Below the pieces are notes generated by a model. It was given only the letters and a program-made list of their open reading frames with translations, was not told the DNA's origin and made no database searches. Of a DNA stretch of 32,000 nt, positions 3,611-19,277 are shown one piece after another. The position numbers were made by a program, and so were the translations under genes. Source of the DNA: Gemmata obscuriglobus (GTDB lineage Bacteria; Planctomycetota; Planctomycetia; Gemmatales; Gemmataceae); the NCBI RefSeq assembly GCF_008065095.1, contig NZ_CP042911.1, forward strand, positions 4,830,001-4,862,000. Reading direction: 5' to 3'. Numbering within the stretch: position 1 is the first letter of the stretch; each line of letters opens with the position of its first letter.

Positions 3611-3910
3611 CTACTTCAGGAAGTACAGCGGACCTTCTTTAAGCATTGTCATCCCGAGCAGTACGTAGACAAATAAAATACAGCCGACAAGCACGAGGGC
3701 CAGCATTCTGTTTTCCCAAAGTACAGACTCTCGCGACCATACCAACTTGAACGGCATTGGAGGGTCTTGATGATATTGAGCGGGCTGAACCGTCGGAACC
3801 GGCTTCTCAACGAACATCCCCCCTCCGCACCGACCGCATTTGACTGTAACGGGGGGCTCCAGGTCACAATCGAGCGAAATGTGGCAGTGCGGGCATTCAA
3901 CTACGATCAT
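3611..3910 (-). CDS. Zinc-ribbon plus single-TM protein (99 aa)
   Basis: ATG at 3910 preceded by AGGTGA. N-terminal CPHC...CGRC zinc ribbon and a C-terminal hydrophobic helix (MLALVLVGCILFVYVLLGMTM). Last gene of the tightly packed operon. Confidence 0.6.
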   Translation of the reverse strand: MIVVECPHCHISLDCDLEPPVTVKCGRCGGGMFVEKPVPTVQPAQYHQDPPMPFKLVWSRESVLWENRMLALVLVGCILFVYVLLGMTMLKEGPLYFLK

Positions 3911-3920
3911 ACATCACCTG

Positions 3921-4526
3921 TTAGGTTCCATTCAGAAGGTCGTCATTGAGAAACTGGCCCGGGAAGTACGTCGGGGTGTTGTAGGCGTACCGGGGATCAC
4001 TGAAGCTGATGTACTGAGCCTGAGCGTAACCCACCTTCGCGTCCTGACCAGCCTGAACGACCGGACCCGCCGAGGGTGCCGCACCCTGCCCGTACTGAAT
4101 CGCGTTCTGCCGCTGCGTCTCCAGTTCGATCGGGAGACCATTCAACAGGAATCCGTCCTTGGGATCGACCCGAACAGCCTGGATGAAAGTGTACTCGCCC
4201 GCGACGCCCCAGTCAAATTTCGTCCCGTTGGCGTGTGCTTTTGGAGCGTCGAACACCAGCGTGCCGGACAGGATCTGGAACGCACCCGCGTCTTTCGGTG
4301 TCGGGATCTGGGGCGGGGTGCCGGTCTTCTTCTCGTAAAACCGCGAAGTCCTTTTCATCTGCGGGGCGTAAGCCTGCACCATCACCACCGGGCTCCAGTT
4401 AGCCAATTCTTGCGGATCGGTCGGGGGCAGTTCGGCGACGGGCAGGGCGAACCGTCCGGGGTCGAAGGTGTACTCGCTCTCACCGGAGATCTGATCGTAA
4501 CTGATGGCCTTGTTCGTGTCTTTCAC
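3921..4526 (-). CDS. Hypothetical protein (201 aa), distal part of the tail-like operon
   Basis: GTG start at 4526 preceded by GAGGAGAA, 3 nt after the upstream stop. Protein-like composition. No family recognised. Confidence 0.55.
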   Translation of the reverse strand: MKDTNKAISYDQISGESEYTFDPGRFALPVAELPPTDPQELANWSPVVMVQAYAPQMKRTSRFYEKKTGTPPQIPTPKDAGAFQILSGTLVFDAPKAHANGTKFDWGVAGEYTFIQAVRVDPKDGFLLNGLPIELETQRQNAIQYGQGAAPSAGPVVQAGQDAKVGYAQAQYISFSDPRYAYNTPTYFPGQFLNDDLLNGT

Positions 4527-4529
4527 CGG

Positions 4530-5273
4530 TCATTCTCCTCTGTATTTGTCGTTGCTTGCTGGGGGTTTGGGGTAAAGCTGATCGAAGGTGGTTCCGGGCA
4601 GGCTCAGTGCCGAGTAGACCAACTGACACCAAGTGCCCCGGCTGCGACTATCGGCTGCGGGTCGGGGGTTTAGGGTCGGGCCTTCTTCGCCAGAGCCGGC
4701 TGGAGCGTAAGGGTCCGGGACTCGCGACACGTCGTGTTTGGTAATCTGGACCCGGCCGGTGTAGTGGTCTTCCAGGACCGGAACGGGCAAGCCCGGAAGG
4801 AGCGAAAAGCCGTACCCCACACCCGTACCTGTGAAGTCCCACTTTCCTCCAACCACCTCTTCCCTAGGACCGCTCAGCACCGGCAGGAGGTCGTACAGTT
4901 GGTCGGCATCCGGTCGGCCCGCAGCTTGGGTCGAGGCCAGAGCCCACGCCAAACTCGTCGAGTACCGCAGCGTGAAGGTGAGCACGTTCGAGGTGGCGTC
5001 GTAGTTGATCGCAATGGCCCCGGGCGGGGGAGCCAAATCACTCAGGTTCGCCGCGAGACGATGCACCATACCGAACGCGATGGACGCCGCGAGGTGGTAG
5101 AGTTGCTGGCGGTTCGCACGCGGTGAGCCGAAGCAGGTTACGGAAACCAGGTCTTGGATTGAACCAAATTGATCAGACAGCTCCTTGACTGCCTTCAGGC
5201 CTGACATCCCCACGTTCGCAGCGGAAACGGCGGCACTAAACGCTCCGATAACTGCGGCTGCTGGACCGGGCAT
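4530..5273 (-). CDS. Hypothetical protein (247 aa), tail-like operon
   Basis: In-frame ATG at 5273 preceded by AGGAG (CGATAGGAGTTTCC-ATG), 8 nt after the upstream stop at 5282. The longer ORF-track N-terminus overlaps the upstream gene. Confidence 0.55.
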   Translation of the reverse strand: MPGPAAAVIGAFSAAVSAANVGMSGLKAVKELSDQFGSIQDLVSVTCFGSPRANRQQLYHLAASIAFGMVHRLAANLSDLAPPPGAIAINYDATSNVLTFTLRYSTSLAWALASTQAAGRPDADQLYDLLPVLSGPREEVVGGKWDFTGTGVGYGFSLLPGLPVPVLEDHYTGRVQITKHDVSRVPDPYAPAGSGEEGPTLNPRPAADSRSRGTWCQLVYSALSLPGTTFDQLYPKPPASNDKYRGE

Positions 5274-5281
5274 GGAAACTC

Positions 5282-6550
5282 CTATCGAAGTCGAGGTGAG
5301 CGGGGAACGATGACCCGAGACGGCTTGATGGTTGGCGTGCTGGCTGTTGGCTTCGTCGGGATCGGCTTCACGGGAGCGGTCTTTGGGGGAGGAAGTGCGA
5401 CGGGGTGTGAAGCTTCCGGTGGAGTAGGCTTGGGCGGCTCTTTCTGCGAATCGTTGGCCTGCTGTAACCACCGCGAATTGAGTAACTGACTGTTTAAGTC
5501 ACTGAAGACTCCCGCAGTGCCCTTGAGCAAGTCCGCATCCGACACGATGGCCTGCGAATGAGTTGCCTCGATTCTCACCGCTCCCCACACCGCCGCACCC
5601 GGAAGGTGAACAGGCAGTTGGCGGTCCTCGAACCTGTACCTCACGCCCGTACCGTCCCTGAACCCCTCGACCACGATCCCGTCCCGCACGAACCCAAACG
5701 GGCACGGCAGCAAAAGCCGCTGTCGCAAGTCGTCGGGTGAAGTGGCCGTGCTGTAGAGCAGGTCGGATCGGAAAACGGCCTCCCCCTCGACGATGATTTT
5801 GGTCAAGTGCTGGTCGTCGATGGAGTGGATCATCGAGAACCGGTTGCTGAGCAGGGGCGACGCCACCGATCCCGCATTGGGGTCCGTGGACACGAGGTTC
5901 TCTTCCGACTCCCGAACGCAAGTCTCAATGTCAAACTGGATGATAAACGTGTCCGCATCGCCCTGGGAACTGAGGATCTCGCAGGAGATCGGCTGGGGTC
6001 CGTTGCGGGCGTCCGTGTGGTAGGAGAACCGCGTCGGTGACATCAGCAACAGTTCCGAATCCGCAGCCGAGCCGGCGAACACGAAGAGGGGCTTGCGTGG
6101 CGTGAGGAGCCGCTCTCGAATGGCCCGGACGGTCAAGGGAACGGGGTTGGCCACGGGCTCCAACTTGAACTGGCGGACCGCATTCGGAGACCGAGCACCG
6201 AGCCCCGAGGGGGGAGCGTCACCGAACACCTCGTCACCGCTCGGGGAGTGAAAGACTTTGGTGATGGGCACGTTCACGTTGGGCGGGACTGCGGCTGCGG
6301 CTCGGCTGACTCCACTGGGGGCCGTCCTGATCGCGTCATCGCCGGAATACACCAACTCGTCCGTCTTCCGATACGACACCGGCGGACCGGCCACGTCTCT
6401 CACCTCGGACTGCCCGTTCACGGTGCAGACGCCCGAAACTCGGTGCCGGGTGTACAGGTAGTCCGTCTTCGTGTCATCGTAGACCGCCTCCATCCGGTAC
6501 TCATTGATCGTCCCCATCGAGAGGTGTATGCCGTTGTACACAATATCCAT
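5282..6550 (-). CDS. Hypothetical protein (422 aa) with proline-rich C-terminal tail, tail-like operon
   Basis: ATG at 6550 preceded by TAGGAGG. The globular-looking body ends in PKPTPPEASHPVALPPPKTAPVKPIPTKP. No family recognised. Its position would fit a distal-tail or hub protein. Confidence 0.55.
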   Translation of the reverse strand: MDIVYNGIHLSMGTINEYRMEAVYDDTKTDYLYTRHRVSGVCTVNGQSEVRDVAGPPVSYRKTDELVYSGDDAIRTAPSGVSRAAAAVPPNVNVPITKVFHSPSGDEVFGDAPPSGLGARSPNAVRQFKLEPVANPVPLTVRAIRERLLTPRKPLFVFAGSAADSELLLMSPTRFSYHTDARNGPQPISCEILSSQGDADTFIIQFDIETCVRESEENLVSTDPNAGSVASPLLSNRFSMIHSIDDQHLTKIIVEGEAVFRSDLLYSTATSPDDLRQRLLLPCPFGFVRDGIVVEGFRDGTGVRYRFEDRQLPVHLPGAAVWGAVRIEATHSQAIVSDADLLKGTAGVFSDLNSQLLNSRWLQQANDSQKEPPKPTPPEASHPVALPPPKTAPVKPIPTKPTASTPTIKPSRVIVPRSPRLR

Positions 6551-6560
6551 CTAGAGCCTC

Positions 6561-7343
6561 CTAGAGTTGGCTGCGGGTGAGGATGCTGCCCATCGGCCTG
6601 CCCTGAAACCGCAGTGGTTCGGTAGCTTCGGGGTGTGGCTGGCTGGTGACGGTCACGGTGAAGGGTGCGGAGTGAAGTGGTGACGCCAGAGAAGCCGAGC
6701 CGAGATGGGGGAGAGCAACTGCCGGCCTCGGAAGTCGGGCGGGGTGCGTGTCCGGTACGGCTACCCGGTGTCGCTCGCCCCAGCCTTCAAACCTTGACAC
6801 TCGGGATTCAGACTGCCCCCTCTGGTCGAGAGCCAGTTTAGCCGTCGAAGTGTGAGGAGCGGGCGGTGTAGTGGGGCGTGAAAAAGCGGGCTGAACCACC
6901 GAGGCTCTCTCTCGCAACACCAGGGGAGCAGCCGGGGGTGCAGAAGGGGCAAGATTCGCAGGAGGTTGAAGAACGCGAGGTGAAGGTGGAGGGGTGGAAG
7001 GGCTGAGAGGGCTCGGAAGGGTCAACGGCTTTATTGGGAGCGTACTGGGTGCTCTCTCTGGACGTTTCAGGCTCGGAACTGGAATCAAGGGCGTTCGGGC
7101 AGGAAGGTCCAGTTTCTTCGGCGGGGTGACTCGGGGAAACTGCCGCTCGGGAGGGCTGAGAGGGCGGATCGAAGGGGAAGAAGCTCGGCTCGAACTGTCA
7201 CCCAACCGAATACCACGAAACGGAACTACCGGCGGAAGTTGCGTACTGCGGGACGGGGAAGGCGGTGCCAGGACACGGGATCGCAACTCTGCTCGGACTC
7301 TCGACTGCTGCTCGTAATCCCCGTCTCTTTTCGCTGTCGCCAT
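6561..7343 (-). CDS. Proline/serine/arginine-rich low-complexity protein (260 aa) in the slot normally held by a tape-measure gene
   Basis: ATG at 7343, stop 10 nt before the next start. About 50 prolines in 260 residues by my count. In the pre-IS sequence the ATG lay 3 nt after the stop of the upstream ORF (TAGCAAATG). Confidence 0.5.
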   Translation of the reverse strand: MATAKRDGDYEQQSRVRAELRSRVLAPPSPSRSTQLPPVVPFRGIRLGDSSSRASSPSIRPLSPPERQFPRVTPPKKLDLPARTPLIPVPSLKRPERAPSTLPIKPLTLPSPLSPSTPPPSPRVLQPPANLAPSAPPAAPLVLRERASVVQPAFSRPTTPPAPHTSTAKLALDQRGQSESRVSRFEGWGERHRVAVPDTHPARLPRPAVALPHLGSASLASPLHSAPFTVTVTSQPHPEATEPLRFQGRPMGSILTRSQL

Positions 7344-7348
7344 TTGCT

Positions 7349-7358
7349 ACCCCTGTTC
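7349..7358. repeat. Target-site duplication, left copy (ACCCCTGTTC)
   Basis: Identical 10-mer directly abuts both IS termini (7349-7358 and 8609-8618). Confidence 0.9.
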
Positions 7359-8608
7359 CAGGGCCTTTCCTTGATTCACTCTACGTAACTCCGATAAGTC
7401 CCTTGGCCATTGCCGGGTCCATCTGGAGCCGCTCGATCGCCTCCGGGCAACTCACCGCCTTGACCTCACGCCACAGGTGCACCACGGCGTTCCGCAACGC
7501 CGCCAGCACCTGTGGTGCGTGCCCCATGCGCACACGACACGCGTCCTCGCCCAGTGTCACGTCACGCACGTAATGCAGTTCGTTCTCGATGCGCCAGTGC
7601 GTCCGCACATGGTTCAGGAGTGTGGCCGCATCCGCCTTCTCGGCCGACAGGCTCGTGATGCCGAAATGCACTTCGACCGTCGTTTGGCCTCGGACCGTCC
7701 GCTCACGCGTCAACTGGAAGCCCTGCTTCACCCCCGCCCACGTCGGCGAGCACGTCAGAATCGAGGTCGTTTGCAGCGTCCGCTTCTCGATGCGGCCGTG
7801 ACCCTTATCGACGGTCGTGGCGATGCGGCTCGGGGCGGGCGGAGGCCGATCCCCAGGGGGAAGTGGCCGCCGCGATCGATCGGGCGGCGGTCTCGAAGGC
7901 GAACCCGGCTCGGATGTCGATCCCCAATCCGGGTTGGTTGTCCTTCACCGTGAGCACGTAGTCGCCGCCGGCCCCGACCACCTCCTCGGCCAGGTCTCGC
8001 TGGCAGAACATGGCGTCGCCGACCACGACCTTCCCTCGCAGCGGCAGAATGCCGAGGAGCGTCAAGGCGGCCTTGTGCTCGTTGGTGCTCGCATCGACCT
8101 TGACCTGGGCGAGTACGGCACCGACGGTGGGGGCGTATGCGGCCAGCAGGTGCTGACCGGGGATCGCGCCGTTGCGAGAGCCTCGAAGGGTCTTGCCGTC
8201 GATGGAGATGTGTGTGAAGGCGGCCGGGTCGACGCGGCTGGCGATCCAGTACGAGAGGACGTGCTCCAGTTGGTCGGCGTCGAAGCGTCGCAGGGTGCGG
8301 GAGAGCGTGGAAACGGCCGGGGTCTTGCCGCGTCGGAAGCCGAGGGCATGGGCGAGGGCGGGTCCGTGCTGTCGCCCGAAGCGAGCGATGCCATTGAGGC
8401 TGGTGCGCCCCATGAGCATGGCGAGGGCGACGAGTCCGAGGAAGGGGGCGAGTGGGTGGATAAGGCCGTGCTTGCTGCGGGGATCGGGAACCGCCGCCAG
8501 GGCATCGACCAGGGTGCAAGGAGACATGGGTACCTTCCTGGCTGCGAGAAGGCGCCCCACATAGCCACGTTCCCTCGTGTAAGCAAGGTGAAATAAGGAA
8601 AGGCCCTG
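7359..8608 (-). mobile_element. ISAs1-family insertion sequence, 1250 bp
   Basis: Terminal inverted repeats CAGGGCCTTTCCTTGATTCAC (7359-7379) and GTGAAATAAGGAAAGGCCCTG (8588-8608), 19/21 matching, with the CAGGG ends typical of ISAs1. Flanked by a 10-bp direct repeat. Encodes a DDE (ISAs1/H-repeat type) transposase. Confidence 0.9.
7381..8560 (-). pseudogene. ISAs1-family DDE transposase, split by one frameshift
   Basis: The N-terminal ORF (8560-7805; ...SIDGKTLRGS...NEHKAALTLL...VVGDAMFCQRDLA...VKDNQPGL) and the C-terminal ORF (to 7381; TVDKGHGRIEKRTLQ...HWRIENELHYVRDVTLGEDACRV) are in different frames. The frames cross near the G5 run at 7866-7870. Confidence 0.85.
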
Positions 8609-8618
8609 ACCCCTGTTC
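8609..8618. repeat. Target-site duplication, right copy (ACCCCTGTTC)
   Basis: See 7349-7358. Confidence 0.9.
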
Positions 8619-8876
8619 GTGTGCGTGCCTGAGTTTCATTGACCAACTCTTCCATTTCGAGTAGTCCCCGTCACCGTTCCGAAACGCCGACTGCAACCAG
8701 TGATCCGGCACGTCCCGCTCTGCTGCAACGATCTGGCTCAGGGTCGAGTAAAAGCACGAAACGTCGTAGAGCCGGGGCAAATTCAACCACAACGCCACCC
8801 AGTCCCCGTACCCCAACTCGACACTACCGAGCCCGAACGTGTGAAACAGATCCGCCCAGAACGCACCCTCTAGGCT
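8609..8876 (-). CDS. -1 frame extension ORF (T-like part of a G/GT tail-chaperone pair); native stop displaced by the IS
   Basis: The frame is open across the slippery site. There is no ATG/GTG and no SD; the only candidate start is TTG at 8816. Before IS insertion it ended ...HAHEQG-TAG, with the TAG now at 7347-7349. It now reads through into the IS. Confidence 0.55.
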
Positions 8877-9169
8877 TTTTTTGAGAGATACTCCTCGAAG
8901 TGATGGACCGCCTCCAAGACTTCCGCGTCAAGCCGGCCGCCCTCCTCGTCGAACCTCCGGAACCCGAACACCCGCCGAGCCACTCCCGCGATCTGAAGGG
9001 CCACAGTCGCTCGGTCTTGAGGAGGAGTGTCGGCACCACACCAGAGGTCCAACCACTCGTCCCACATCCCGCCGCTCTGAGCAACAAGGCTGTAGGAGAG
9101 GGCAATCGGATCGTACTTATCCCCGGTGGGGGCGGTGTAAATCTGCTTTTCGTGCTCGGTAAACAGCAT
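8870..9169 (-). CDS. Tail assembly chaperone-like protein (G-like, 99 aa)
   Basis: ATG at 9169 preceded by GGAG, 2 nt after the upstream stop. Small acidic protein located directly after the two tube-like paralogs. Ends ...TCA AAA AAA GCC TAG. Confidence 0.55.
   Translation of the reverse strand: MLFTEHEKQIYTAPTGDKYDPIALSYSLVAQSGGMWDEWLDLWCGADTPPQDRATVALQIAGVARRVFGFRRFDEEGGRLDAEVLEAVHHFEEYLSKKA
8876..8882 (-). promoter_or_regulatory. Candidate programmed -1 ribosomal frameshift site A_AAA_AAA
   Basis: Seven A residues on the coding strand are phased X_XXY_YYZ in the zero frame (TC[A AAA AAA] GCC TAG). The -1 frame continues AGC CTA GAG... and stays open for 89 codons in the pre-IS sequence. 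Confidence 0.6.
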
Positions 9170-9171
9170 GG

Positions 9172-9720
9172 CTACTCCGGGGTGACGGAAGGGAAATCGG
9201 ACGGGACTTCGGTATACAGGACGAACTCTTTCACCTGCTTGTAGTAGAGAGGATTGCACTCCACCATGAGGGTGATTGACTTAAGACGGTCTTCAGAATA
9301 TTCGGACCAATCCAACAGAGTGCCCGATCTGTAGAGGCGACCGGTCCACATCCCGGGAGGCAGAGGAACCACAGGAAAGGTGTAGATCGTGTGCCGAAAA
9401 AACAACTCGAAGTCTGACACGTTGAGCACCAACCGACCGACTTTTGGTGTGTGAACGGTTGGGGAACTGGAGTTGCTGCGGATGGAGTTCCACGTCTCAA
9501 CATTCAGTCGGTTGATCGTGGCCGTTACAACGTGCTGCTCCCCCTGCCCCGTTTTCTGCCACGGGACTTCACCGCCCTTATCACAGTGAAGATCGCTGTA
9601 GAATCGGCGGACGTGAATTTCTGGGGCGGTGGTGCAAGTGCCGAGGAAGTCGAACGAGTTGCGTGAGCGTAGCCTGACGTACAGTTCGATCGCACCGACC
9701 GGGAGGAATTGGGCTGACAT
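9172..9720 (-). CDS. Structural protein paralog B (182 aa), possible tail-tube-like protein
   Basis: ATG at 9720 preceded by GAGG. Paralogous to 9730-10302 through shared blocks LGTC, INRLNxxTWN, GRLY, ECN and the C-terminus F-P-S-V-T-P-E. The tube assignment rests on size and position upstream of the G/GT-like pair only. Confidence 0.45.
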   Translation of the reverse strand: MSAQFLPVGAIELYVRLRSRNSFDFLGTCTTAPEIHVRRFYSDLHCDKGGEVPWQKTGQGEQHVVTATINRLNVETWNSIRSNSSSPTVHTPKVGRLVLNVSDFELFFRHTIYTFPVVPLPPGMWTGRLYRSGTLLDWSEYSEDRLKSITLMVECNPLYYKQVKEFVLYTEVPSDFPSVTPE

Positions 9721-9729
9721 GGGGCAACC

Positions 9730-10302
9730 TCACTCTGGCGTGAAGCTGCCGAACTTGCCACCATCCTCAGTGAAGAGGGGAAAAGCCCGAGTCGCCGGAT
9801 CAAACACCCCGTTGCACTCGAAGAGGATGGAGACCGAGTGGGTGCGGGTGCCAGCAGAGCTTTCCGAGGAGCGGCGTGGAATGGCTGAGTAGTAGAGTCT
9901 GCCACGCGGGATCGCAGGGTCACCCGAGAACGCAGTCCCACCGAAGGCAAACGTCATCAGTAGCTGGAAGTCCGTTTTGCCAATGGTGAGCGTGCCGTGA
10001 TCGGTCTGGAAATCGGTGTAGTCAATCGGCGAATTGGTGACCTGCGGAGAGCCTCGACGGAGGACGTTGTAGGTGTTCCAGTTGAAGCGGTTGAGGGTGA
10101 GGGTGACGATCTCCTGTCTGCGGTCACGCACGTAATCTGTTGCCAGCGAACGGCCGCCCAAATCATTATACACTGGTAAGAATGAATCCGTAGCCTCCCA
10201 CTCCGGGCTACGCTCGCAAGTACCCAGATAACGCCAAGCAGAATCGGCGGGCTTCTTAATGTAGGTGTCAACTGGTCCCAGACAGGGAAAAACGGCAGGC
10301 AT
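9730..10302 (-). CDS. Structural protein paralog A (190 aa), possible tail-tube-like protein
   Basis: In-frame ATG at 10302 preceded by GGAG (GTGGAGTTCTCC-ATG). Ends F-G-S-F-T-P-E. First gene after repeat copy D. Confidence 0.45.
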   Translation of the reverse strand: MPAVFPCLGPVDTYIKKPADSAWRYLGTCERSPEWEATDSFLPVYNDLGGRSLATDYVRDRRQEIVTLTLNRFNWNTYNVLRRGSPQVTNSPIDYTDFQTDHGTLTIGKTDFQLLMTFAFGGTAFSGDPAIPRGRLYYSAIPRRSSESSAGTRTHSVSILFECNGVFDPATRAFPLFTEDGGKFGSFTPE

Positions 10303-10525: not shown

Positions 10526-11146
10526 CTACATCCACTCATCCATGCCGGTCGCGGGTGGGCTAGTCCGTCGGTGGGTAGCGATTTTGTGTGCCATGCCGAG
10601 ACTGGAGATCATGCCTTGAGCAGAGGGCCAGTGCAAAGCGTCACCGGCGAAACGCGGAATGAAGTGGTGCTGGGCCGGGGTCTCGTGCTCCCAACTCGCC
10701 AAGTAGCCCGGCAGGTCGGTCACGTCCACACCCCACGGCAGCACCGGAGGCTCCTGCTCACCAGTGTACTCGGCCATAGGGTCGTGTTTGATAGACCAAG
10801 GGCGGTTGGGGTCGTCGGATCGCTGCGAGGGGTACTCGTGCTGGAGCCAGTGGGCGAGCGACTGGTGAAAGTCGGCCATGTCGTGGTGATCCTGCTCTCG
10901 CAGGTAGTCGGCGTAGGCGTTCCTGGTGATGTGGTCGAAAGGTGACTTGTCCAGGGCTTTCAGAAAAGCTTTGTTCTCCGGTCCCAGCTTACGCGGCTGT
11001 TGCTCGGGAGGCGTTTTGGTTCGCTTTGGTTTGGTGTACTTGCCGGTAGTGGGGTCTACCATCGGCCCGATCCCAGTGAACGGCTTTTTGGCAAAATGGA
11101 GTGCCTTGTTGTACGATTTGGCGTAATTGCGATTTGAACGATCCAT
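10526..11146 (-). CDS. TIGR02996-like (Gemmata repeat-companion type) domain protein (206 aa)
   Basis: ATG at 11146 preceded by AGAGG. The motif FLKALDKSPFDHITRNAYADYLREQD resembles the LVYADWLxExGD signature seen in 18624-19277. The ORF also stays open upstream through the pentanucleotide repeat to ATG 11344. Confidence 0.55.
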   Translation of the reverse strand: MDRSNRNYAKSYNKALHFAKKPFTGIGPMVDPTTGKYTKPKRTKTPPEQQPRKLGPENKAFLKALDKSPFDHITRNAYADYLREQDHHDMADFHQSLAHWLQHEYPSQRSDDPNRPWSIKHDPMAEYTGEQEPPVLPWGVDVTDLPGYLASWEHETPAQHHFIPRFAGDALHWPSAQGMISSLGMAHKIATHRRTSPPATGMDEWM

Positions 11147-11155
11147 AAAAACCTC

Positions 11156-11225
11156 TGAAGTGAAGTGAAGTGAAGTGAAGTGAAGTGACGTGAAGTGACG
11201 TGAAGTGAAGTGAAGTGAAGTGACG
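11156..11225. repeat. Pentanucleotide tandem repeat (TGAAG/TGACG) x14
   Basis: Eleven TGAAG and three TGACG units are read directly. The repeat starts 9 nt upstream of ATG 11146 and reads as (CTTCA)n on the coding strand. Confidence 0.95.
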
Positions 11226-11301
11226 GAAGAAGTGTGGAAGCGTAGCCGACTCAGATCGATAGCCGAAGCTGCTGAAGAGGCGGGGCGGCTTCGGGGGAGC
11301 G

Positions 11302-11613
11302 TCACCGGGTCCGGCCCGCTGTCGTGGAAGGGCGAAACGCCCACTCTTCGGCCACTGACACGACCTTGGCCCGAACCATTCGGTACCGCTCGAAGTCGCC
11401 GTGCTGCTCAACGTCCCAAGTCTCTTCCAGAGACTGTAGACCCAACCGTGCAACTTCGGCCCTCTCAACCGCAGGGCCACGAACTTGGACCGGGACGACA
11501 TCGACCACGTGAGCGTTCACTAACTCACCGTCCTGGCCAACAAGCTGCATGTCGAACAGTACCGCATAGGCCCGCAGCATCTGAGCCGGGTTCGAAGGAG
11601 TGACGTTACACAT
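11302..11613 (-). CDS. Hypothetical protein (103 aa)
   Basis: ATG at 11613 with GGAG upstream. Protein-like composition. Second gene of the minus-strand operon. Confidence 0.5.
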   Translation of the reverse strand: MCNVTPSNPAQMLRAYAVLFDMQLVGQDGELVNAHVVDVVPVQVRGPAVERAEVARLGLQSLEETWDVEQHGDFERYRMVRAKVVSVAEEWAFRPSTTAGRTR

Positions 11614-12369: not shown

Positions 12370-12625
12370 GAATTCTCCATCAGACCACGCTCGCATTCGA
12401 CCAGCGGACGCCACAAATCAGCCTTTTCCGGGCACCGTCGCCGGCAATGTTGCAGCAAAATTGAAAATGCCCAAAAATCTTAAACCCTTCAGCAACATAG
12501 GTTTTGAACACCTTCAATCCAACTCTGTGTCGAATCCGTAGTCTTTCCTGGACTCACTGCCTATATATTATTGGGGAGCCCATACTGACTTCCCACGAGT
12601 AGCCAAACCGATGAGGAACTAGACC

Positions 12626-12853
12626 ATGGCCAAGACCAAGACCAAGACCGCGACCGACCTCGTGAACGTGCAACTGCCCTACCTGACTCACCGGGTGATT
12701 CGGGAGCGAGCAAAACAATTAATGGCCAACGTGAAGATCGTTACCACCGCAATGGCCCGAGGATTCGAGCAACTCAGTCTGGAGGAGCAGACGAAGCTAA
12801 TCGACGAAGCTCGAACCAAGCTCATTCAGGCTGAGTCCGCAAAGGGTTACTAA
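12626..12853 (+). CDS. Small putative DNA-binding protein (75 aa), possibly ribbon-helix-helix
   Basis: ATG preceded by GAGGAA. Lysine-rich N-terminus, then VNVQLPYLTHRVIRERAKQL (strand-helix pattern). First gene rightward of the control region. Fold assignment is tentative. Confidence 0.45.
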   Translation: MAKTKTKTATDLVNVQLPYLTHRVIRERAKQLMANVKIVTTAMARGFEQLSLEEQTKLIDEARTKLIQAESAKGY

Positions 12854-12959
12854 TCGCGTGTGTTCCACCTACCCCCTTCACTCTAACGGTGTGCTCAGAT
12901 CTCCGGTCCCGCACCAGACGCACCTTCACTTCTTCTCTCTCACTTCCCGAGGCATTTCA

Positions 12960-13382
12960 ATGAGTTACCTTGATTCGATTCCCACGTCCCGCCTCGTCCC
13001 AAAGGGCACACTGGTTCAGTGTCGGCTCCTCTCCTGCGTCCGCTCTCGACATTTTGCCAATGGGCAGAAAATCCAATACGAGTGTTCCTGGCAGGTTACA
13101 CAGGGGCCATATGCCGGTCACGTGCTAACGCGGAGCTGGTGGACAACCCCGGGCGGACTCCCGGTGCTGTACGCCGATTGCGAAAAGCTCGACATTGGGC
13201 ACGCAGAGGAACTTTGCTTCGGCCCGCCTGACCCGATCGTTGTTGAGGGTGTCGCCTCGATCAGTGAGTACAACGGCGTGTCGCGAAACGAGCTGTGCAG
13301 AATCGATCGCCGAGTGCTGCCGCAGACCTCACGCACCCGCCCCAGAGAAGTCTTCGACGATGAGATCAGCACCGCATTTTAG
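12960..13382 (+). CDS. Hypothetical protein (140 aa), possible OB-fold/SSB-like
   Basis: In-frame ATG at 12960 preceded by GAGG. The acidic C-terminal tip ...EVFDDEISTAF resembles the SSB DDDIPF-type tail. Lies just upstream of the helicase-like gene. The function is a guess. Confidence 0.4.
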   Translation: MSYLDSIPTSRLVPKGTLVQCRLLSCVRSRHFANGQKIQYECSWQVTQGPYAGHVLTRSWWTTPGGLPVLYADCEKLDIGHAEELCFGPPDPIVVEGVASISEYNGVSRNELCRIDRRVLPQTSRTRPREVFDDEISTAF

Positions 13383-13411
13383 CCCCACCCCACTCACAGA
13401 AGGACAGACAT

Positions 13412-15160
13412 ATGGCAAAGAAAAAGGTCACGAAAGCAGACATTCAGGGCCAGTACGAGGTCTTCCGGTCGCTAGGCATCCGGCTGGTCAGGTCGAAGTC
13501 CGGGGAGCTGTTCCTGGCCACCAGCCCGACCGGCAAGCCCGGGGGGAGTGTGGAACTACACCCCTACGATCTGGCTGAGTCGTGTGAGGAGATCAAATGG
13601 GTACTGAGAGACGCGGGCAAAGCCATTGACATGCGACTGGTGGCCGAAGCGGTCAAGGGACTCGTCCGCAGTACCAAGAAAAGTCCACCTGAAATGGTGT
13701 CGCGTCGTGTCGCCGAGCGGGACGGGAAAATCTTCGTGGACCTGTGCAACTCCGAGCGACAGGTAGTGGAAATTGCGGCTGACGGGTGGCGAGTCACCAC
13801 CGACTGTCCGGTTCTCTTTCACAGGCCGCTCCAAGCTCTACCCCTGCCGGTCCCGGTACAGGACGGCTCCATTCAGCGATTGCGGGAGCTGTTCAGCATT
13901 CTCGACGAACCGAGCTGGATTTTGGTGCTGGGCTGGCTGAGCACCACCCTGAAGGAGCACTGCGACCACCCGTTCTTGTCGATCCTGGGTCCGCCGGGCT
14001 CGGGAAAAAGTGCCCTTACTAAGTTTGCGTACTGCACGATCGATCCTCGCGAGGCGAAGGGGCTGCAGATGCAGCAGAACGCAGAGGATTTGCAACTCAG
14101 TGCTTTCAACCGCTGGGTACTCCCGCTCGATGAGGTCGATAGCCTCCCGCCGGAAAAATCCCGGATCGTGGCGACCATCTGCACGGGCGGGGCTCTTGAA
14201 AAGCGAAAGAAGTACGAGAATACCGAAGTCGTATGTGCTGTAATCAATCGCCCGGCAATCATCAACGGGCTAGAGGCAGGGGAGTGGCTACACGAGGAGC
14301 GAATCCGGGACCGTGCGATTCCCGTGGCTCTCGGTCGGGTGCGGCCCGAAGCCAGTGTTGAGGACGGAGATCTTATCAGGGCGTTCGAGCGACATCACCC
14401 GGAGATACTCGGCGGCCTTTTCACCATCGTTTCACAGGCACTCAGAGGCATTCGGGATGGAGAGGTGACAGCTCGTCACTCCCTGCGAATCAAAGAGGCC
14501 ATGACGTGGGCGGATCGCTGCGTGCACGCTGCGGGGTACTCGAACGGGGAGTTCACCCGACTGGTGACGGAAGCACACGCCAGGATCGTTGAGAGGGTGG
14601 CCGAAGAGTGGTCCCTACTCGACCCACTACTGAAAGTGGCTGGATCGGGGTTCCAGGGCAGTCCGACGGAGCTTCTGGACAAGCTCAACAGCATGGTCGA
14701 GCGGAAGGGGCGGGATTGGCCGAAGAGTTCAAGCCAACTGACCCGAACGATCAACCAGCACGTTGAGTACTTAGAAAAGCGGGGCGTCCGGGCTGAGCAC
14801 ACCAAGGGCCAGCAACGATTCTGGGTCATTCGGTCGGTCCCGAGTTTCGCTCAACAGAGTGCCAACTCAGTGAATGCTGCCAAACCGCTGGCACCACTAT
14901 CCGAAGGCGAGCAGTCAGACCTAAAGTCGAAGCTCCTTCGGTGGGCCGATTTTGCAGACAAAATCGATATCTGCTTCACTCACCGGGACTCCAGCAACAC
15001 GCTATATGGTCGATTTGCAGAGGCGGCATCGATAGCCCTGAAGAGGTCTTTAGAGCCAGACCGCACGCTGCGAATACCTGATGACGAGTTTCTATCGCTC
15101 GATACAGCAAGCGAGTTACTACTTGTCGAAGTTAATCCAAAAGCTGAGGGCAAAAATTGA
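13412..15160 (+). CDS. P-loop NTPase, SF3-helicase-like replication protein (582 aa)
   Basis: Walker A ILGPPGSGKS, Walker B VLPLDEVD, then a beta-strand ending in N (VINRPAIIN, motif C-like). The large N-terminal domain and this position are typical of phage/plasmid primase-helicase or initiator genes. Confidence 0.55.
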   Translation: MAKKKVTKADIQGQYEVFRSLGIRLVRSKSGELFLATSPTGKPGGSVELHPYDLAESCEEIKWVLRDAGKAIDMRLVAEAVKGLVRSTKKSPPEMVSRRVAERDGKIFVDLCNSERQVVEIAADGWRVTTDCPVLFHRPLQALPLPVPVQDGSIQRLRELFSILDEPSWILVLGWLSTTLKEHCDHPFLSILGPPGSGKSALTKFAYCTIDPREAKGLQMQQNAEDLQLSAFNRWVLPLDEVDSLPPEKSRIVATICTGGALEKRKKYENTEVVCAVINRPAIINGLEAGEWLHEERIRDRAIPVALGRVRPEASVEDGDLIRAFERHHPEILGGLFTIVSQALRGIRDGEVTARHSLRIKEAMTWADRCVHAAGYSNGEFTRLVTEAHARIVERVAEEWSLLDPLLKVAGSGFQGSPTELLDKLNSMVERKGRDWPKSSSQLTRTINQHVEYLEKRGVRAEHTKGQQRFWVIRSVPSFAQQSANSVNAAKPLAPLSEGEQSDLKSKLLRWADFADKIDICFTHRDSSNTLYGRFAEAASIALKRSLEPDRTLRIPDDEFLSLDTASELLLVEVNPKAEGKN

Positions 15161-15255
15161 AGTGCGGGAACAAAGAAACCACGTGCGGCTGGTGCGAGAA
15201 GCTGGAGCAGCTCGATCTCATTTCGGGCTCAAACCTACAACTGCCTACCGTGTGA
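15157..15255 (+). CDS. Short Cys-rich ORF (32 aa, TTG start overlapping the upstream TGA); possibly the true N-terminus of the next gene via a frame change
   Basis: TTG AAG TGC GGG AAC ... encodes KCGNKETTCGWCEKLEQLDLISGSNLQLPTV-stop. The TTGA overlap with the helicase stop suggests translational coupling. Below the ORF-track size cut-off. Confidence 0.3.
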   Translation: MKCGNKETTCGWCEKLEQLDLISGSNLQLPTV

Positions 15256-15316
15256 CCGAACCTCTGATGTAATAGAGTGCGAATGCAACAAGTGCAAAAA
15301 AACCTATCACGAGAAT

Positions 15317-16099
15317 GTGATCAGAACCAAGAAGTGTGGCTTTAAGGTGGTGGAAGGACGATCTTGCTGCCCACACTGCTTCTACAAAGCCAACGACGGC
15401 TTCAAGAGTCGTGACCCAAATGGCATCCAAGAGGGTCAACGTAAACTCCGCGACACCCAAGGAAAACCCGCAATTGGCACTCCACCGACTCCGCGAGAAG
15501 CGAGGGCAATTTGTGCTTATGCTCTGGCCGAAACTTTTATGAAAGCAAACAAAGCGGACCCTCTAAGTCAGGATGACCTTCTGAACCGCCTGACGGCCAA
15601 GGGTACCGAATGCGTTTTTCGTTTTGTCCCTTCGACACAAGACATGGTAATTCCCAACTTTCGCACAAGTTACAATTGCTGCTTTGAGGTGCCAAGGGGG
15701 TTCGTAGGATACTGTTGGAAATGTTACAAGCAGATTCTAACAGATATCTATACAGAGCGTGAACAATCACCTGAGTTCCTTGAGTACAGTGAAGGACCAA
15801 TCGAAGCTGCAGCTAAGCCCGGTCTTAACCCAAGCCAGATCCTCCTAGACCCTCTCCCTTTACTGCTGCCGCCGCTCAACAACCTGACACAGCAGCAACA
15901 GGACGTTCTTTTGATGAGTCTAGGACTGCACCAGGAGTATGGCGGGGAGCTGTCCGATAACGAGATCGCCAGCCTCCTCAATATCTCTCCCGGGAACGTC
16001 CGCTCTACCAAGAGCAGGGCAAAGACACAATTGAGTGCCGATCCGGAGCTAGCAACCCTTTTTGCCAAGATATCCAGGCGTCAGACCACTGACGGGTGA
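15317..16099 (+). CDS. Cys-rich protein with C-terminal sigma-70 region-4-like HTH (at least 260 aa)
   Basis: The C-terminus LTQQQQDVLLMSLGL...LSDNEIASLLNISPGNVRSTKSRAKTQL matches the sigma70_r4_2 pattern. The first canonical start is GTG 15317, but the frame is open and Cys-rich from about 15239 (NCLPCDRTSDVIECECNKCKKTYH). Confidence 0.6.
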   Translation: MIRTKKCGFKVVEGRSCCPHCFYKANDGFKSRDPNGIQEGQRKLRDTQGKPAIGTPPTPREARAICAYALAETFMKANKADPLSQDDLLNRLTAKGTECVFRFVPSTQDMVIPNFRTSYNCCFEVPRGFVGYCWKCYKQILTDIYTEREQSPEFLEYSEGPIEAAAKPGLNPSQILLDPLPLLLPPLNNLTQQQQDVLLMSLGLHQEYGGELSDNEIASLLNISPGNVRSTKSRAKTQLSADPELATLFAKISRRQTTDG

Positions 16100-16142
16100 C
16101 ACTCGCAGAGTAGCGGTGTTGGGAGCAAGCGGACATCAAACT

Positions 16143-16180
16143 CTACCTTTCTCCCAACCCCTACTTGCATCTCGATCCTC
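16143..16180 (+). repeat. Island-specific ~36-nt repeat, copy G
   Basis: CTACCTTTCTCCCAACCCCTACTTGCATCTCGATCCTC. Ends 17 nt before the TTG 16197 start. Confidence 0.9.
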
Positions 16181-16196
16181 TACCCCAAGGACTACA

Positions 16197-16529
16197 TTGA
16201 CTACAGACGATCACACTTTGCACGCCCTCTCCCACCCTTCCCTTCAGGCCCTTCTTCCTGCCCGCGACCACGGCAAGCCTTACACAGCAAATCGACTGGC
16301 TGATTGGTGCCGAAGGGGACGCCGGGGGTTGGATGGAGAGCAGGTGAATTTGAGGGCTGAGAAGCTGGGAGGGCAATATATGACTAGCGTCACAGCTTTA
16401 CGGGAGTTCCTTGAGAAGACAGGCCTGAGCGTGGAGGATGACGATGAGGAGTTTCACGACTTCTACTACCCGCCACCACTACCGATTCCACTCTCAGTCC
16501 ATACTTTCGCAGCAAAGCACTATCGTTGA
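16197..16529 (+). CDS. Excisionase/MerR-like HTH protein, DUF1580-like (110 aa)
   Basis: TTG at 16197 preceded by AAGGA. The motif KPYTANRLADWCRRGRRGLDGEQVNLRAEKLGGQYMTSVTALREFLEK resembles the planctomycete DUF1580 pattern (T..RW...G..g..Le...vGg...TS.eAl.RF). The start codon is uncertain. Confidence 0.5.
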   Translation: MTTDDHTLHALSHPSLQALLPARDHGKPYTANRLADWCRRGRRGLDGEQVNLRAEKLGGQYMTSVTALREFLEKTGLSVEDDDEEFHDFYYPPPLPIPLSVHTFAAKHYR

Positions 16530-16568
16530 TCCATCATAAGAGCGACCAACTCCAGTTACTAATGTGAT

Positions 16569-17477
16569 TTAACAACCCGCCAAACTGATTAACAGGTTAA
16601 TGTGGGCACACGTAGCCCCGATCATATGCTCAGCGTACTCTCGGCCAGCTATGTAAGAAGGCTTTGGCCCCTTGCCGTGTGCGTCCCCCATCTTGTTGCG
16701 AATCATACCAACTGCCTTGAATATCTCCGTGTAATGAGGCGGAAACAAGTCGTGTTTTCGGCAAATTTCAACGTAAGTGGAGCAACTACCGGCGTTAGGG
16801 TCGAAGGTCCATCCCTTGAAATCACAGATCGTCCGGAGAACGCTTTCGAATGCTGATCCACAGGATGTGATAGCCCCAGCGTAGTCACCGTTTTTGACTT
16901 CCTCGAATGCGTTAAGCAATTCCCCGTTGGCGACAGAGAATCGCTCCCCGGCTAACACTTCAAGTGCGGGCTTAACGACAATTTCGTGAGTTGTCCTCTC
17001 GCCTTTCTTGATAAGACGTGGGTACTCCACTCGCTGAACGTTTGTATCAAGTTGCCGACCGTACAGAGTAGCTCGCTCGCCAGTATCACGCCATACTGGT
17101 GCAGTCAGTTCGTATCCAACCCCTTCCTCTTCAAACATCTGGTTAATCCAGGCTACGGCACCACAGGCAGCGTCTCCAGTACCAACCGCGTTTGTGCGAA
17201 AACACATCTCGATAAACTCAATTGCCTCATCATCTACACACGCAAGAAAGTGCTGAGCAGCAGGGTAGGCCTGATTAAAGTTTGCTTTTAACGAACCATA
17301 CTTTTGCAACGCCAAGTCCGCAACTTCCCCCAGGAGACGCTCGAAGCTGTAACTTATCTCGCCCCAGCCATTCCTATGATTTTTAAAGAACTGGAGCACC
17401 CGCATCCGGACTCTCTCGGAGAGCGAATACGTGTAACGTGCAATGGGAACTTCCTGCTTCTGTGCAGACCACCCCAT
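16569..17477 (-). CDS. HEPN-domain protein, AbiJ-like abortive-infection candidate (302 aa)
   Basis: ATG at 17477 preceded by AGGAGG. C-terminal Rx6H motif IRNKMGDAHG (16677-16700). N-terminal YSLSERVRMRVLQFFKN resembles AbiJ N-terminal domains. Stands alone, convergent with its neighbour. Confidence 0.6.
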   Translation of the reverse strand: MGWSAQKQEVPIARYTYSLSERVRMRVLQFFKNHRNGWGEISYSFERLLGEVADLALQKYGSLKANFNQAYPAAQHFLACVDDEAIEFIEMCFRTNAVGTGDAACGAVAWINQMFEEEGVGYELTAPVWRDTGERATLYGRQLDTNVQRVEYPRLIKKGERTTHEIVVKPALEVLAGERFSVANGELLNAFEEVKNGDYAGAITSCGSAFESVLRTICDFKGWTFDPNAGSCSTYVEICRKHDLFPPHYTEIFKAVGMIRNKMGDAHGKGPKPSYIAGREYAEHMIGATCAHINLLISLAGC

Positions 17478-17920
17478 GTCAGCCTCCTGCTTATTGGCAA
17501 AACGAACACATCAGTAAGGGGCCGGTAGTGAACTAAGCCCCTTACAGTTAAACGATTGACATCGATCGCGACAGTACGATAACGCACTGAAATAGAATGG
17601 AGTAGCCCTGCCTCGTCCCCTATAGGGCATTTTTCCGACTAAGACAGCAGCAGAATTGGAACAATCCGCAAATGCCACCAGCCTCGTTTCCTTGGCGTTC
17701 GGGAGTGGATTGGTTGGTCATGGGACCGCTGCTCTCAATTACTTTCTTTGGTGCATTACCTCCACAAGGGATTCACCAACCTGAAGATCTCGCCCTACTC
17801 CCTCTTCTTGTTCCCAAAGATACTGACTGCTTACCCACCCTAGCATCTTGGTGTTCAGTTTGCGGGTCAAAAGACTGACTCCGTTTGAAGATGGGGACAT
17901 CCTGTTGAGGGATCTGCGAA

Positions 17921-17955
17921 GAGGATAGAGATGCAAGTAGGAGATTGCGAGAAAC
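17921..17955 (-). repeat. Island-specific ~36-nt repeat, copy H (degenerate right half)
   Basis: GAGGATAGAGATGCAAGTAGGAGATTGCGAGAAAC. Confidence 0.75.
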
Positions 17956-17990
17956 AGAGAGCTGGCGGTTACAGAGGTGAGGACTGAACT

Positions 17991-18027
17991 CTAACCTTTC
18001 CTCCACCACCTACTTGTAGCACGATCC
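17991..18027 (+). repeat. Island-specific ~36-nt repeat, copy I (degenerate)
   Basis: CTAACCTTTCCTCCACCACCTACTTGTAGCACGATCC. Back-to-back with copy H across a 35-bp spacer. Confidence 0.65.
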
Positions 18028-18040
18028 CCTACCCTTCACT

Positions 18041-18062
18041 CCGGCTTCGGCTGGGGTTTTTT
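18041..18062 (+). terminator. Hairpin (UUCG loop) plus T6, terminator-like or leader element
   Basis: CCGGC-TTCG-GCTGG followed by GG TTTTTT. Lies between repeat copy I and the HNH start. A similar module recurs at 18576-18609. Confidence 0.4.
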
Positions 18063-18077
18063 CGTTTCTGGAGACCT

Positions 18078-18569
18078 ATGGAAGAGATTTGGAAGCCGAT
18101 TCCGAATGCAGATGGATACGAAGTAAGTGACCAAGGCCGAGTGAGAACTTACTACTGGCGAAAGAAGTGGTGGCCCGAGCCCCGAATCCTCTCCCTGACT
18201 CCCCACTCTGACGGGTATCTCAAGACCACCATCTACGGCCAAACCCGCTACGTCCACCAACTCGTTCTATCAGTTTTTGGTCCAGATCCCCGACCAGGGC
18301 AGGTGGTGCGTCACAGAGGGGGAGATCCCCACGACAACCGAGCCTGCAACCTGGAGTGGGGGAGTCGAACGGAGAACAATCAGGACACGGCTCGGCACGG
18401 AAAAGTAGCGGGGCAGAAGCTGAGCGAGGACGAGGCTTGGGGAATCAAACTGCTCCTGCACCACCAAGTTCCTGGACCCGACGTGAAACGGATCTACCCC
18501 CACGCCAGCACCGGAATGATCTCCTGCATCAGACTCGAAAAGACTTGGCCCCACTTGACGATCAACTAA
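18078..18569 (+). CDS. HNH homing endonuclease (NUMOD4 + HNH_3 type, 163 aa)
   Basis: WKPIPNADGYEVSDQGRVRT (NUMOD4 pattern). YVHQLVLSVFGP...VRHRGGDPHDNRACNLEWGSRTENNQD (HNH). ATG preceded by GGAG. Confidence 0.8.
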   Translation: MEEIWKPIPNADGYEVSDQGRVRTYYWRKKWWPEPRILSLTPHSDGYLKTTIYGQTRYVHQLVLSVFGPDPRPGQVVRHRGGDPHDNRACNLEWGSRTENNQDTARHGKVAGQKLSEDEAWGIKLLLHHQVPGPDVKRIYPHASTGMISCIRLEKTWPHLTIN

Positions 18570-18575
18570 CTCTCG

Positions 18576-18609
18576 CTCCTCAGCCTTCGGGTCGGGGAGT
18601 TTTCTTTTT
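18576..18609 (+). terminator. Rho-independent terminator after the HNH gene
   Basis: CTCCTCAGCC-TTCG-GGTCGGGGAG stem-loop followed by TTTTCTTTTT, 6 nt after the stop. Confidence 0.6.
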
Positions 18610-18623
18610 GGAGACTGATTGAA

Positions 18624-19277
18624 ATGACGGATGGCGACCTTCTACTCCGAGCCGTGCTGAACGACCCCGAAGACGACACCGCACGGCTGGTTTACGCGGA
18701 CTGGCTGATCGAACATGGGGACCGTAAACGGGGTGAGTTCATTCGGGGACAAGTGGAGGCTGCGAGTGCCGGGATAGAGTGCCCACGGGAAATTTGGGAT
18801 TTGCTACCGGCCGGGTTCGAGTGGCTGGGACTGCAACCGCCGGAAGAGTTCGAGATCGGTTGGGACCGTGGGTTCGTGGACTGGATCGTTTCACCGCGGC
18901 GATACATCTGGAACCGGAAGCGGCTTCAGAAACTCTTTAGTCAGCACCCGATTAACAGTGTCGAGTTGTGCGACGTGTCCCCTGCTTTCCTGGACCCCGC
19001 TGACCCCGAACAGTGCGGTTGGTGGCCGGGCGGGTGGACCGTAGATGGGAAAGTGTCCGATCTCCTGTTCGCTCGACTCCCGGACGGGGAGATGTTCTTC
19101 TGCTGTGATGCCGGCGAGTGGACGGGTTGGTTCTTGCAGTACCCGACATGGGACTCGGCCCGAGAGGCACTCCGAGCAGCGGTGACTTCCTACGGGCGAA
19201 GTCTGGTGCGGTTGCCGTCGAGTGCGTTCCGGCAGAAAGAAGGCGGGCGAATCCGAAAGCGGAAGTTCGTGACCTGA
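18624..19277 (+). CDS. TIGR02996 domain-containing protein (217 aa)
   Basis: The N-terminus LLRAVLNDPEDDTARLVYADWLIEHGDRKRGEFIRGQ is the canonical Gemmata repeat-companion signature. Confidence 0.75.
   Translation: MTDGDLLLRAVLNDPEDDTARLVYADWLIEHGDRKRGEFIRGQVEAASAGIECPREIWDLLPAGFEWLGLQPPEEFEIGWDRGFVDWIVSPRRYIWNRKRLQKLFSQHPINSVELCDVSPAFLDPADPEQCGWWPGGWTVDGKVSDLLFARLPDGEMFFCCDAGEWTGWFLQYPTWDSAREALRAAVTSYGRSLVRLPSSAFRQKEGGRIRKRKFVT

Follow-up and report, generated by a model that had tools for sequence, protein, structure and literature searches.

In the 32,000 nucleotides of the Gemmata obscuriglobus genome analysed here (contig NZ_CP042911.1 of assembly GCF_008065095.1, positions 4,830,001 to 4,862,000; hereafter the window), the minus strand carries a small two-part gene whose halves are very probably joined by a programmed −1 ribosomal frameshift, in the manner of the G/GT tail-assembly chaperone genes of phage lambda. 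We refer to its first open reading frame (ORF) as G and to the −1 extension as T. G (8870..9169) runs in the zero frame from an ATG at 9169-9167 to a TAG at 8872-8870 and encodes a tail-assembly-chaperone-like protein of 99 residues. Its 3′ end reads, on the minus strand, ...GAG GAG TAT CTC TCA AAA AAA GCC TAG. The seven A residues form the slippery heptamer A_AAA_AAA (8876..8882, minus strand). In the zero frame they are read as tcA (8884-8882) AAA AAA, which is exactly the phasing of an X_XXY_YYZ site, and the zero-frame stop comes 3 nt further on. The initial annotation of this DNA, which was made from the letters alone, had pointed to this A7 run at the end of a 99-residue ORF, and we reproduced both its coordinates and its phasing; all the details it gave of the site proved accurate.

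The −1 frame is open across the slip site. From 8876 it reads SLEGAFWADLFHTFGLGSVELGYGDW...HAHEQG and continues for 89 codons (8876-8610), as translation confirms; this T segment (8610..8876, minus strand) originally ended in a stop codon made up of T8609, A7348 and G7347, whose bases are now separated by an insertion. The earliest in-frame start codon of T is a TTG at 8816, 20 codons past the slip site, which agrees with the earlier statement that a TTG was the only candidate start. The fusion of G and T that a slip would produce before the insertion is computed to be 98+89 = 187 residues long, the approximate length that had been proposed.

The insertion, at the last codons of T, is an ISAs1-type insertion sequence (IS) of 1250 bp (7359..8608, minus strand). 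It is bounded by 21-nt inverted repeats (7359-7379 and 8588-8608) that are 90% complementary, and 10 bp of the target are duplicated at its two sides, the copies at 8618-8609 and 7358-7349 reading GAACAGGGGT on the minus strand. Its transposase contains the domains DDE_Tnp_1_assoc and DDE_Tnp_1 (Pfam, 2e-16 and 2e-12). A DDE transposase with the DDE_Tnp_1_assoc domain, inverted repeats and a duplication of this size are as expected of the ISAs1 family, in which duplications measure 8-10 bp. The transposase is split over two frames, with halves at 8527-7805 and about 7815-7381 and a frame break between about 7900 and 7815, and because its frame is broken this copy is probably defective. When the IS and one copy of the duplication are excised, the sequence becomes ...GAA CAG GGG TAG caa ATG; the T stop thus lay 3 nt ahead of the ATG at 7343, where the next gene begins. 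In Gemmata algarum JC673 the orthologous locus (L003) is free of the IS and has the same layout of stop, 3 nt and start. Together with the target duplication and the inverted repeats, it confirms the reading of T that the initial annotation had given for the sequence before the insertion. With the IS present, the −1 frame runs for 373 codons past the slip site and the shifted product would have 471 residues, about 284 of them a junk tail, because the IS has replaced the stop codon of T. The element also lies between G/GT and the downstream genes of the module described below, cutting these off from the operon. This strain of G. obscuriglobus probably has an impaired module, and G. algarum an intact one.

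A heptamer followed by an open −1 frame is not by itself rare in this module. In-phase X_XXY_YYZ heptamers occur six times in its 1684 codons, about one per 280 codons, and two of the five others precede −1 frames that are open for 106 and 283 codons. At the 61-64% guanine plus cytosine (GC) of this DNA, alternative frames commonly stay open, often for hundreds of codons. We used one of these sites as a negative control: C_CCA_AAG at 5387-5381 on the minus strand, which lies in phase in the gene for a 422-residue protein and is followed by the 283 open −1 codons. This heptamer is not present in the G. algarum locus and is therefore taken to be a chance site. It is conservation that raises the slip site of G above chance.

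Conservation of the heptamer and of the −1 frame

With the G-T fusion as query, a word-indexed homolog search gave no match, and an exhaustive HMMER search gave 37 proteins. These comprise about 30 G-like proteins (91-140 residues), five T-like proteins (76-92 residues) and two that span both. At the DNA level, the window was compared with 11 further loci (L001 and L003-L012; L002 duplicates L001). These 12 loci represent 10 diverged lineages, in which G is 29-52% identical to the Gemmata protein and the coding GC ranges from 39 to 67%. An in-phase canonical heptamer is present in all 12, in the same alignment column, directly after a conserved FLxWL motif. It is A_AAA_AAA in the window, G. 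algarum, L001 and L012, A_AAA_AAC in L009, G_GGA_AAA in L004, L005, L006, L007, L008 and L011, and G_GGA_AAC in L010. In L005, the G_GGA_AAA overlaps an in-phase A_AAA_AAA within a G3A7 run. The residues encoded at the heptamer vary (SKK, AKK, IKN, EGK, MGK, QGK, AGK and EGN). Given these residues and the codon usage of each locus, the chance that codon choice would yield all ten heptamers together is 3.5e-12. Because the encoded residues differ among loci, the constraint at this place acts on the nucleotides. Conservation of the A7 tract and of the −1 ORF had been put forward earlier as a check on the frameshift. The A7 tract itself is not universal, but G_GGA_AAx is found at the same place otherwise, and no stops interrupt the −1 frame. 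The frameshift interpretation is strongly supported, a slip site and a −1 ORF being kept in every homologous locus recovered.

Among the G homologs, P0013, P0015, P0018, P0019 and P0036 have long zero-frame tails that share a P-C-T-D-C-P-P motif, and P0015, P0018 and P0019 have neither Lys-Lys nor Gly-Lys at the slip column. To judge from these sequences, the arrangement in this subgroup may be another one.

The −1 frame stays open across the loci for 56-86 codons beyond the zero-frame stop. This stop lies 3-63 nt after the heptamer, varying by locus, and the zero-frame tails are unrelated to each other. Translated in the −1 frame, the loci share a conserved T domain, R-x-E-G...VA..YGLG...sY.qFV.LWLN...P.EWI.aa..P.EAskWR.WDLkR, and the mean pairwise local alignment score of the T region is 86 in this frame, compared with 29 and 27 in the other two. 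(The MAFFT program aligned the T-only proteins wrongly onto G, and that alignment was dropped.) When the window was compared with G. algarum, G had a ratio of nonsynonymous to synonymous substitution rates (dN/dS) of 0.031. For the T DNA the ratio was 0.156 when read in the −1 frame and about 1.1 in the other two frames. These data show the −1 ORF to be under selection at the protein level. Two of the homologs, P0021 (194 residues) and P0029 (198 residues), carry G and T in one continuous ORF and match the T profile in hhalign with probabilities of 96% and 92.5%, respectively; in these sequences G and T are thus joined in a single chain.

These results bear first on the possibility that the heptamer is a coincidence, or that G and T are the halves of a pseudogene split by a frameshift mutation. 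The density of in-phase heptamers and the long open alternative frames described above are what such an explanation would draw on. However, the same split and a heptamer recur in the 10 diverged lineages, G and T are each under purifying selection in their own frame, and the control heptamer at 5387 is not conserved. Conservation, dN/dS and the codon-choice probability effectively refute this explanation, and we give it almost no credence.

It is also conceivable that T is a separate small gene with its own start (in Gemmata the TTG at 8816, in other loci an ATG or a GTG) and that the heptamer is incidental. In some relatives, gene callers have annotated stand-alone T ORFs of 76-92 residues (P0016, P0028, P0030, P0031 and P0034), and in L001 there is an in-frame GTG five codons past the slip site with AGGGGG before it. 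Against this, no T start codon is conserved in position or type, and conservation begins at the first post-slip codon, so that in Gemmata 20 conserved codons (SLEGA...GLG...) stand ahead of the first possible T start. Independent initiation would also leave aside the selection on the heptamer at the nucleotide level and the existence of relatives with G and T in a single ORF. The want of a conserved start and the conservation from the first codon after the slip led us to reject this explanation, which we regard as very improbable.

A further explanation retains the fusion and dispenses with the ribosomal slip. If RNA polymerase added one A within the A7 run, the resulting G-T fusion would be identical in sequence. 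Slippage on A runs occurs in bacteria, and runs of seven A residues are present at the Gemmata, L001, L005 and L012 sites. A review covers this subject (PMC5009743). The G_GGA_AAA and G_GGA_AAC sites (7 of the 12 loci), however, have only 3-4 A residues, too few for polymerase slippage, and they match the rule for tandem-tRNA slippage exactly and in phase. Phase is irrelevant to slippage during transcription, yet it is conserved in all 12 loci. As a general mechanism, transcriptional slippage is rejected by the conserved phase and by these short-A sites; some small probability is still accorded to it, a little above that of independent initiation. On the strength of these sequence comparisons, we conclude that the programmed −1 ribosomal frameshift site is very probably real.

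Some of the relatives have a predicted RNA structure downstream of the heptamer. In four loci (L001 10952-11010, L004 2963-3020, L008 2595-2651 and L010 425-485), single-sequence folds predict a hairpin. Its 5′ arm, GAGGG, starts 4-5 nt past the heptamer, lies within the codons for the conserved E-G and pairs with CCCUC about 55 nt downstream. The folding z-scores are −4.96 for L010, −2.44 for L008, −1.66 for L004 and −0.71 for L001. The post-heptamer regions of L005, L006 and L009 also fold better than shuffled sequences. When RNAalifold was applied to the four hairpin-bearing loci, the outer GAGGG/CCCUC stem was not recovered, because its register shifts by one codon between loci, and covariation was not shown; the hairpin is therefore a feature of the single-sequence folds only. 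Upstream, a GGAG is found 8 nt before the heptamer in 7 of the 12 loci, but a conserved Glu-Trp motif confounds this signal. At the Gemmata slip site, nothing else stands out except the nearby zero-frame stop, 3 nt past the heptamer.

Gene context and the tail-assembly interpretation

The interpretation of G/GT as a chaperone of tail assembly draws on the genes around it. In L001 the order of genes is scaffold, a 349-residue protein, an HNH endonuclease, adaptor, two tube-like paralogs, G/GT, a proline-rich protein and proteins of 400, 258, 211 and 99 residues. The 138-residue head scaffolding protein matches phrog_673 (2.3e-13). The head-tail adaptor (185 residues), directly upstream of the tube-like genes, matches Pfam Phage_Mu_Gp36 with 25.2 bits (cut-off 24.7) and phrog_195 (2.7e-7). 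PDB profile searches with the candidate capsid and adaptor families gave nothing. The order is unchanged in L005 and L006 except that a single tube-like gene replaces the two, and in all three loci the tube-like gene or genes follow the adaptor. The order in L001, L005 and L006 is that of the structural genes of tailed viruses, and G/GT occupies its canonical place in it. The HNH genes, of phage homing endonuclease type (L001 7903-8643 and L005 6544-7467, reverse strand; phrog_374, up to 1e-62), are inserted in the opposite orientation between the gene for the candidate capsid protein and that for the adaptor.

The lambda mechanism has been reviewed (PMC5009743, summarising Levin 1993; Xu, Hendrix and Duda 2004, 2013, 2014). 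By analogy, we propose the following sequence of events for Gemmata. Most ribosomes would make the 99-residue G protein, terminating at the TAG 3 nt past the heptamer. In a minority, with an efficiency that is presumed, the Lys-tRNAs in the P and A sites would slip back by one base on A_AAA_AAA, and these ribosomes would read the −1 frame to give the 187-residue G-T fusion (...EEYLSKK-SLEGAFW...). The G domain shared by both products would coat the protein in the tape-measure slot, its presumptive partner. The T domain, carried by few of the products, would bring in the tube-like protein, again a presumptive partner, so that a non-contractile tail tube polymerises. The chaperone role itself is assigned by analogy with lambda, and the analogy rests on synteny in the viral relatives. 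We consider a tail-chaperone-like function for G/GT reasonably likely; the reading as a whole, in which a gene of two ORFs resembles lambda G/GT, is expressed by programmed −1 ribosomal frameshifting and has such a function, is in our judgement likely.

In the window, G/GT is the third gene of an operon that extends from 10302 to 3611 on the minus strand. Upstream are two tube-like paralogs that are about 30% identical to each other. Paralog 1 (9730..10302, 190 residues, GobsT_40980) is 100% identical to the G. obscuriglobus protein of that name (P0001) and 50% identical to the first tube-like protein of L001, with a dN/dS of 0.017 relative to G. algarum. Paralog 2 (9172..9720, 182 residues; dN/dS 0.086) aligns with the tube family across the loci. 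The tube-like protein has no Pfam, PHROG or PDB sequence match. An AlphaFold2 model from a 3-sequence alignment, with a predicted local-distance difference test (pLDDT) score of 41, is beta-rich with one helix. The structures retrieved with this model by Foldseek are mostly phage tail tube proteins, the best being the TTP polymer 9jgh (E 0.015, probability 0.96) and others including SPR, YSD1, lambda, T5, monocin and AFP. These matches suggest a tail tube protein but are not proof of it.

Downstream of the IS, and in the slot where a tape-measure gene would be expected, is a gene for a proline-rich, low-complexity protein of 260 residues (6561..7343). Its counterparts (L001 11197-11844, L004 3175-3738, L006 5401-5961, L007 1504-2103, L008 2819-3556 and L009 1516-2010) are likewise rich in P, S, T and R and of low complexity. 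Over the loci, these proteins have 164-260 residues, and only a C-terminal SILTxSxL-like motif is conserved. There follow, all on the minus strand, four further genes, the first three of them for conserved module proteins. The 422-residue protein (5282..6550) is 43.5% identical to the 400-residue protein of L001 (p400) and has a dN/dS of 0.12; no Pfam or PHROG family matches it, and it is possibly a distal tail or baseplate component. The 247-residue protein (4530..5273) is 39% identical to L001 p258, and its ATG at 5273 comes 8 nt past the stop of the preceding gene. The 201-residue protein (3921..4526) is 44% identical to L001 p211 and matches phrog_5392, a family of unknown function (3.6e-5). 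The last module gene (3611..3910) encodes a 99-residue zinc-ribbon protein with a hydrophobic C-terminus; it gave weak zinc-ribbon matches only, and an ORF of the same size is found at the same position in L001, L004 and G. algarum. None of the Gemmata operon proteins matches Pfam or an annotated PHROG. In tblastn searches of 50,697 GenBank phage records the tube-like and 422-residue proteins had no match, and a scan of IMG/VR with the tube alignment found no relative.

Several observations weigh against the interpretation set out above. First, the post-heptamer region of Gemmata has no significantly stable RNA structure (z = 0.01). Second, G, T and GT match no family in Pfam, PHROGs or PDB profiles. 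The G domain is predicted by AlphaFold2 with high confidence (pLDDT 94-98 over residues 11-90) as a beta-hairpin followed by helices, and its best Foldseek matches have E values of 0.46 in the PDB and 0.38 in BFVD. The comparison with known chaperone families that the initial annotation had recommended, by profile and by predicted structure, was therefore negative for both sequence and fold. Third, the identification of the tube rests on the model with a pLDDT of 41 and on matches that are individually non-significant. The earlier suggestion that the paralogs are major tail proteins gains from the synteny in relatives and from this weak fold signal, but suffers from the poor model and the lack of a sequence match. 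Fourth, the protein in the tape-measure slot is unlike the known helical tape measures and matches no tape-measure family in Pfam or PHROGs. G/GT had been placed upstream of a tape-measure gene; a gene does start 3 nt past the original T stop, but its proline-rich product is not a recognisable tape measure. Fifth, the view of the operon 10302-3611 as a phage-tail-like module is favoured by the synteny in the metagenomic relatives but not by the surroundings of the Gemmata copy, since no homologs of the L001 head genes were found in the 32-kb window or in the 20-kb G. algarum locus. Finally, the single ORFs of P0021 and P0029 could be natural fusions that need no frameshift, or could be homopolymer assembly errors.

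Several of these points invite another explanation, in which the frameshift is real but G/GT serves a different role, in a tail-derived or an unrelated envelope or secretion module kept by Gemmata. The absence of sequence or fold likeness to described chaperones would fit such a role, as would a downstream partner that is proline-rich and disordered-looking instead of a tape measure, and a module without head genes that is nevertheless under purifying selection. On the other hand, G/GT in the viral relatives comes after the scaffold, adaptor and tube-like genes, which is its canonical position, and the tube-like protein draws tail tube structures in Foldseek. Moreover, the known chaperone families are mutually unrecognisable by sequence (PMC5009743). 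We consider a different role unlikely, though less so than either transcriptional slippage or independent initiation of T, and retain the interpretation of G/GT as a tail-chaperone-like gene.

The two Gemmata copies can be compared directly. The modules of the window and of G. algarum have about 89% and 94% nucleotide identity in two aligned blocks, and their flanks are syntenic; the flanks are common to both species and as diverged as the module itself. The dN/dS was 0.02-0.16 for all module genes tested. The Gemmata cluster of tail-like genes occupies a conserved chromosomal site, has neither head nor packaging genes with it and is under purifying selection. It is either a prophage remnant that has persisted for a long time or a tail that has become domesticated. 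A more specific proposal is that it is a domesticated, tailocin-like, head-less, non-contractile tail module from an undescribed tailed-virus lineage, with a frameshifted chaperone of new fold and a proline-rich, probably extended or disordered "tape measure" standing in for a helical ruler; this is a tentative suggestion, which we think may well prove wrong.

The surroundings of the module differ between the two species at one point: 5 kb next to the G. algarum module (4849-9988 of that locus) are absent between window positions 10313 and 10469. This segment encodes a 1054-residue protein with collagen-like repeats (tail-fibre PHROGs, 2.8e-26) and proteins of 354 and 213 residues. In the window, a (TGAAG) x 13.6 tandem repeat (11156-11223) closely precedes the probable start of the gene at 10526-11344, and a similar pentanucleotide repeat in G. 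algarum is translated as HFTSLHFTS.... Further along, an island of lower GC (50-53%) extends from 12500 to 19700. It contains genes for a sigma-70 region-4 protein (15317-16099), an Abi_C/AbiJ-like protein (16569-17477) and a NUMOD4+HNH endonuclease (18078-18569; phrog_59, 1.8e-35), as well as a 217-residue protein that shares a repeat with a 781-residue protein of L001. On the other side of the module is a Cro/C1-type helix-turn-helix (HTH) gene (1959-2438). The island and the HTH gene constitute a mobile or phage-derived context around the module.

Comparison with known systems and implications

The slippery heptamer of lambda is G_GGA_AAG, and that of most relatives studied here, G_GGA_AAA or G_GGA_AAC, differs from it only in the last base. 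As in lambda, a −1 shift at an in-phase X_XXY_YYZ site near the stop of a small ORF (about 100-140 residues) lengthens its product, and the ORF lies after the tube-like gene or genes and before the tape-measure slot, and in the relatives downstream of scaffold and adaptor. It is the arrangement that is conserved and not the sequence, and no described chaperone family detectably resembles these proteins in sequence or fold. Other differences from lambda are that the downstream gene is short (164-260 codons) and proline-rich and does not encode a long helical tape measure, that four of the lineages have two tube-like paralogs instead of one, and that in Gemmata no head genes accompany the module.

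The dnaX gene of Escherichia coli, which encodes gamma and tau, provides a second comparison. It shifts at A_AAA_AAG with an efficiency of about 50%, and the shift leads to early termination. In both systems, two Lys-tRNAs would slip back by one base on a heptamer rich in A; the upstream GGAG and, in several relatives, the hairpin 4-5 nt downstream are further likenesses. In contrast, the shift described here extends the protein, and the Gemmata site lacks a stable downstream structure.

F-type tailocins, such as F-pyocins and monocins, are flexible, non-contractile phage tail clusters that bacteria keep without head genes. The Gemmata module resembles them, as judged from its genes alone, in grouping tube-like genes, a chaperone-like pair and candidate distal tail genes with no head genes among them. 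It is also found at a fixed chromosomal site in two species, under purifying selection, and in G. algarum a collagen-repeat, tail-fibre-like gene adjoins it. It differs in that it is not known to form particles, in that no lysis cassette or regulator was identified, the HTH gene and the zinc-ribbon, membrane-like protein being all that lies nearby, and in that the G. obscuriglobus copy has an IS and is without the fibre segment.

G/GT as described here is a new sequence family with a textbook arrangement. It is absent from the reference phage collections searched (GenBank phages, PHROGs and IMG/VR) and therefore marks a tailed-virus lineage for which no reference genome was found. That Planctomycetes are hosts of these viruses is suggested by the Gemmata copies only. 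The analysis offers a firm annotation, derived from sequence only, for genes listed as hypothetical in Gemmata and in soil and water metagenomes. G/GT is moreover a recoded gene, which current gene callers miss or split. The replacement of A_AAA_AAN by G_GGA_AAN, or the reverse, with place and phase kept, amounts to a natural experiment in heptamer exchange. Potentially new biology may lie in the head-less module that is under selection in Gemmata and in the proline-rich protein that takes the place of a tape measure.

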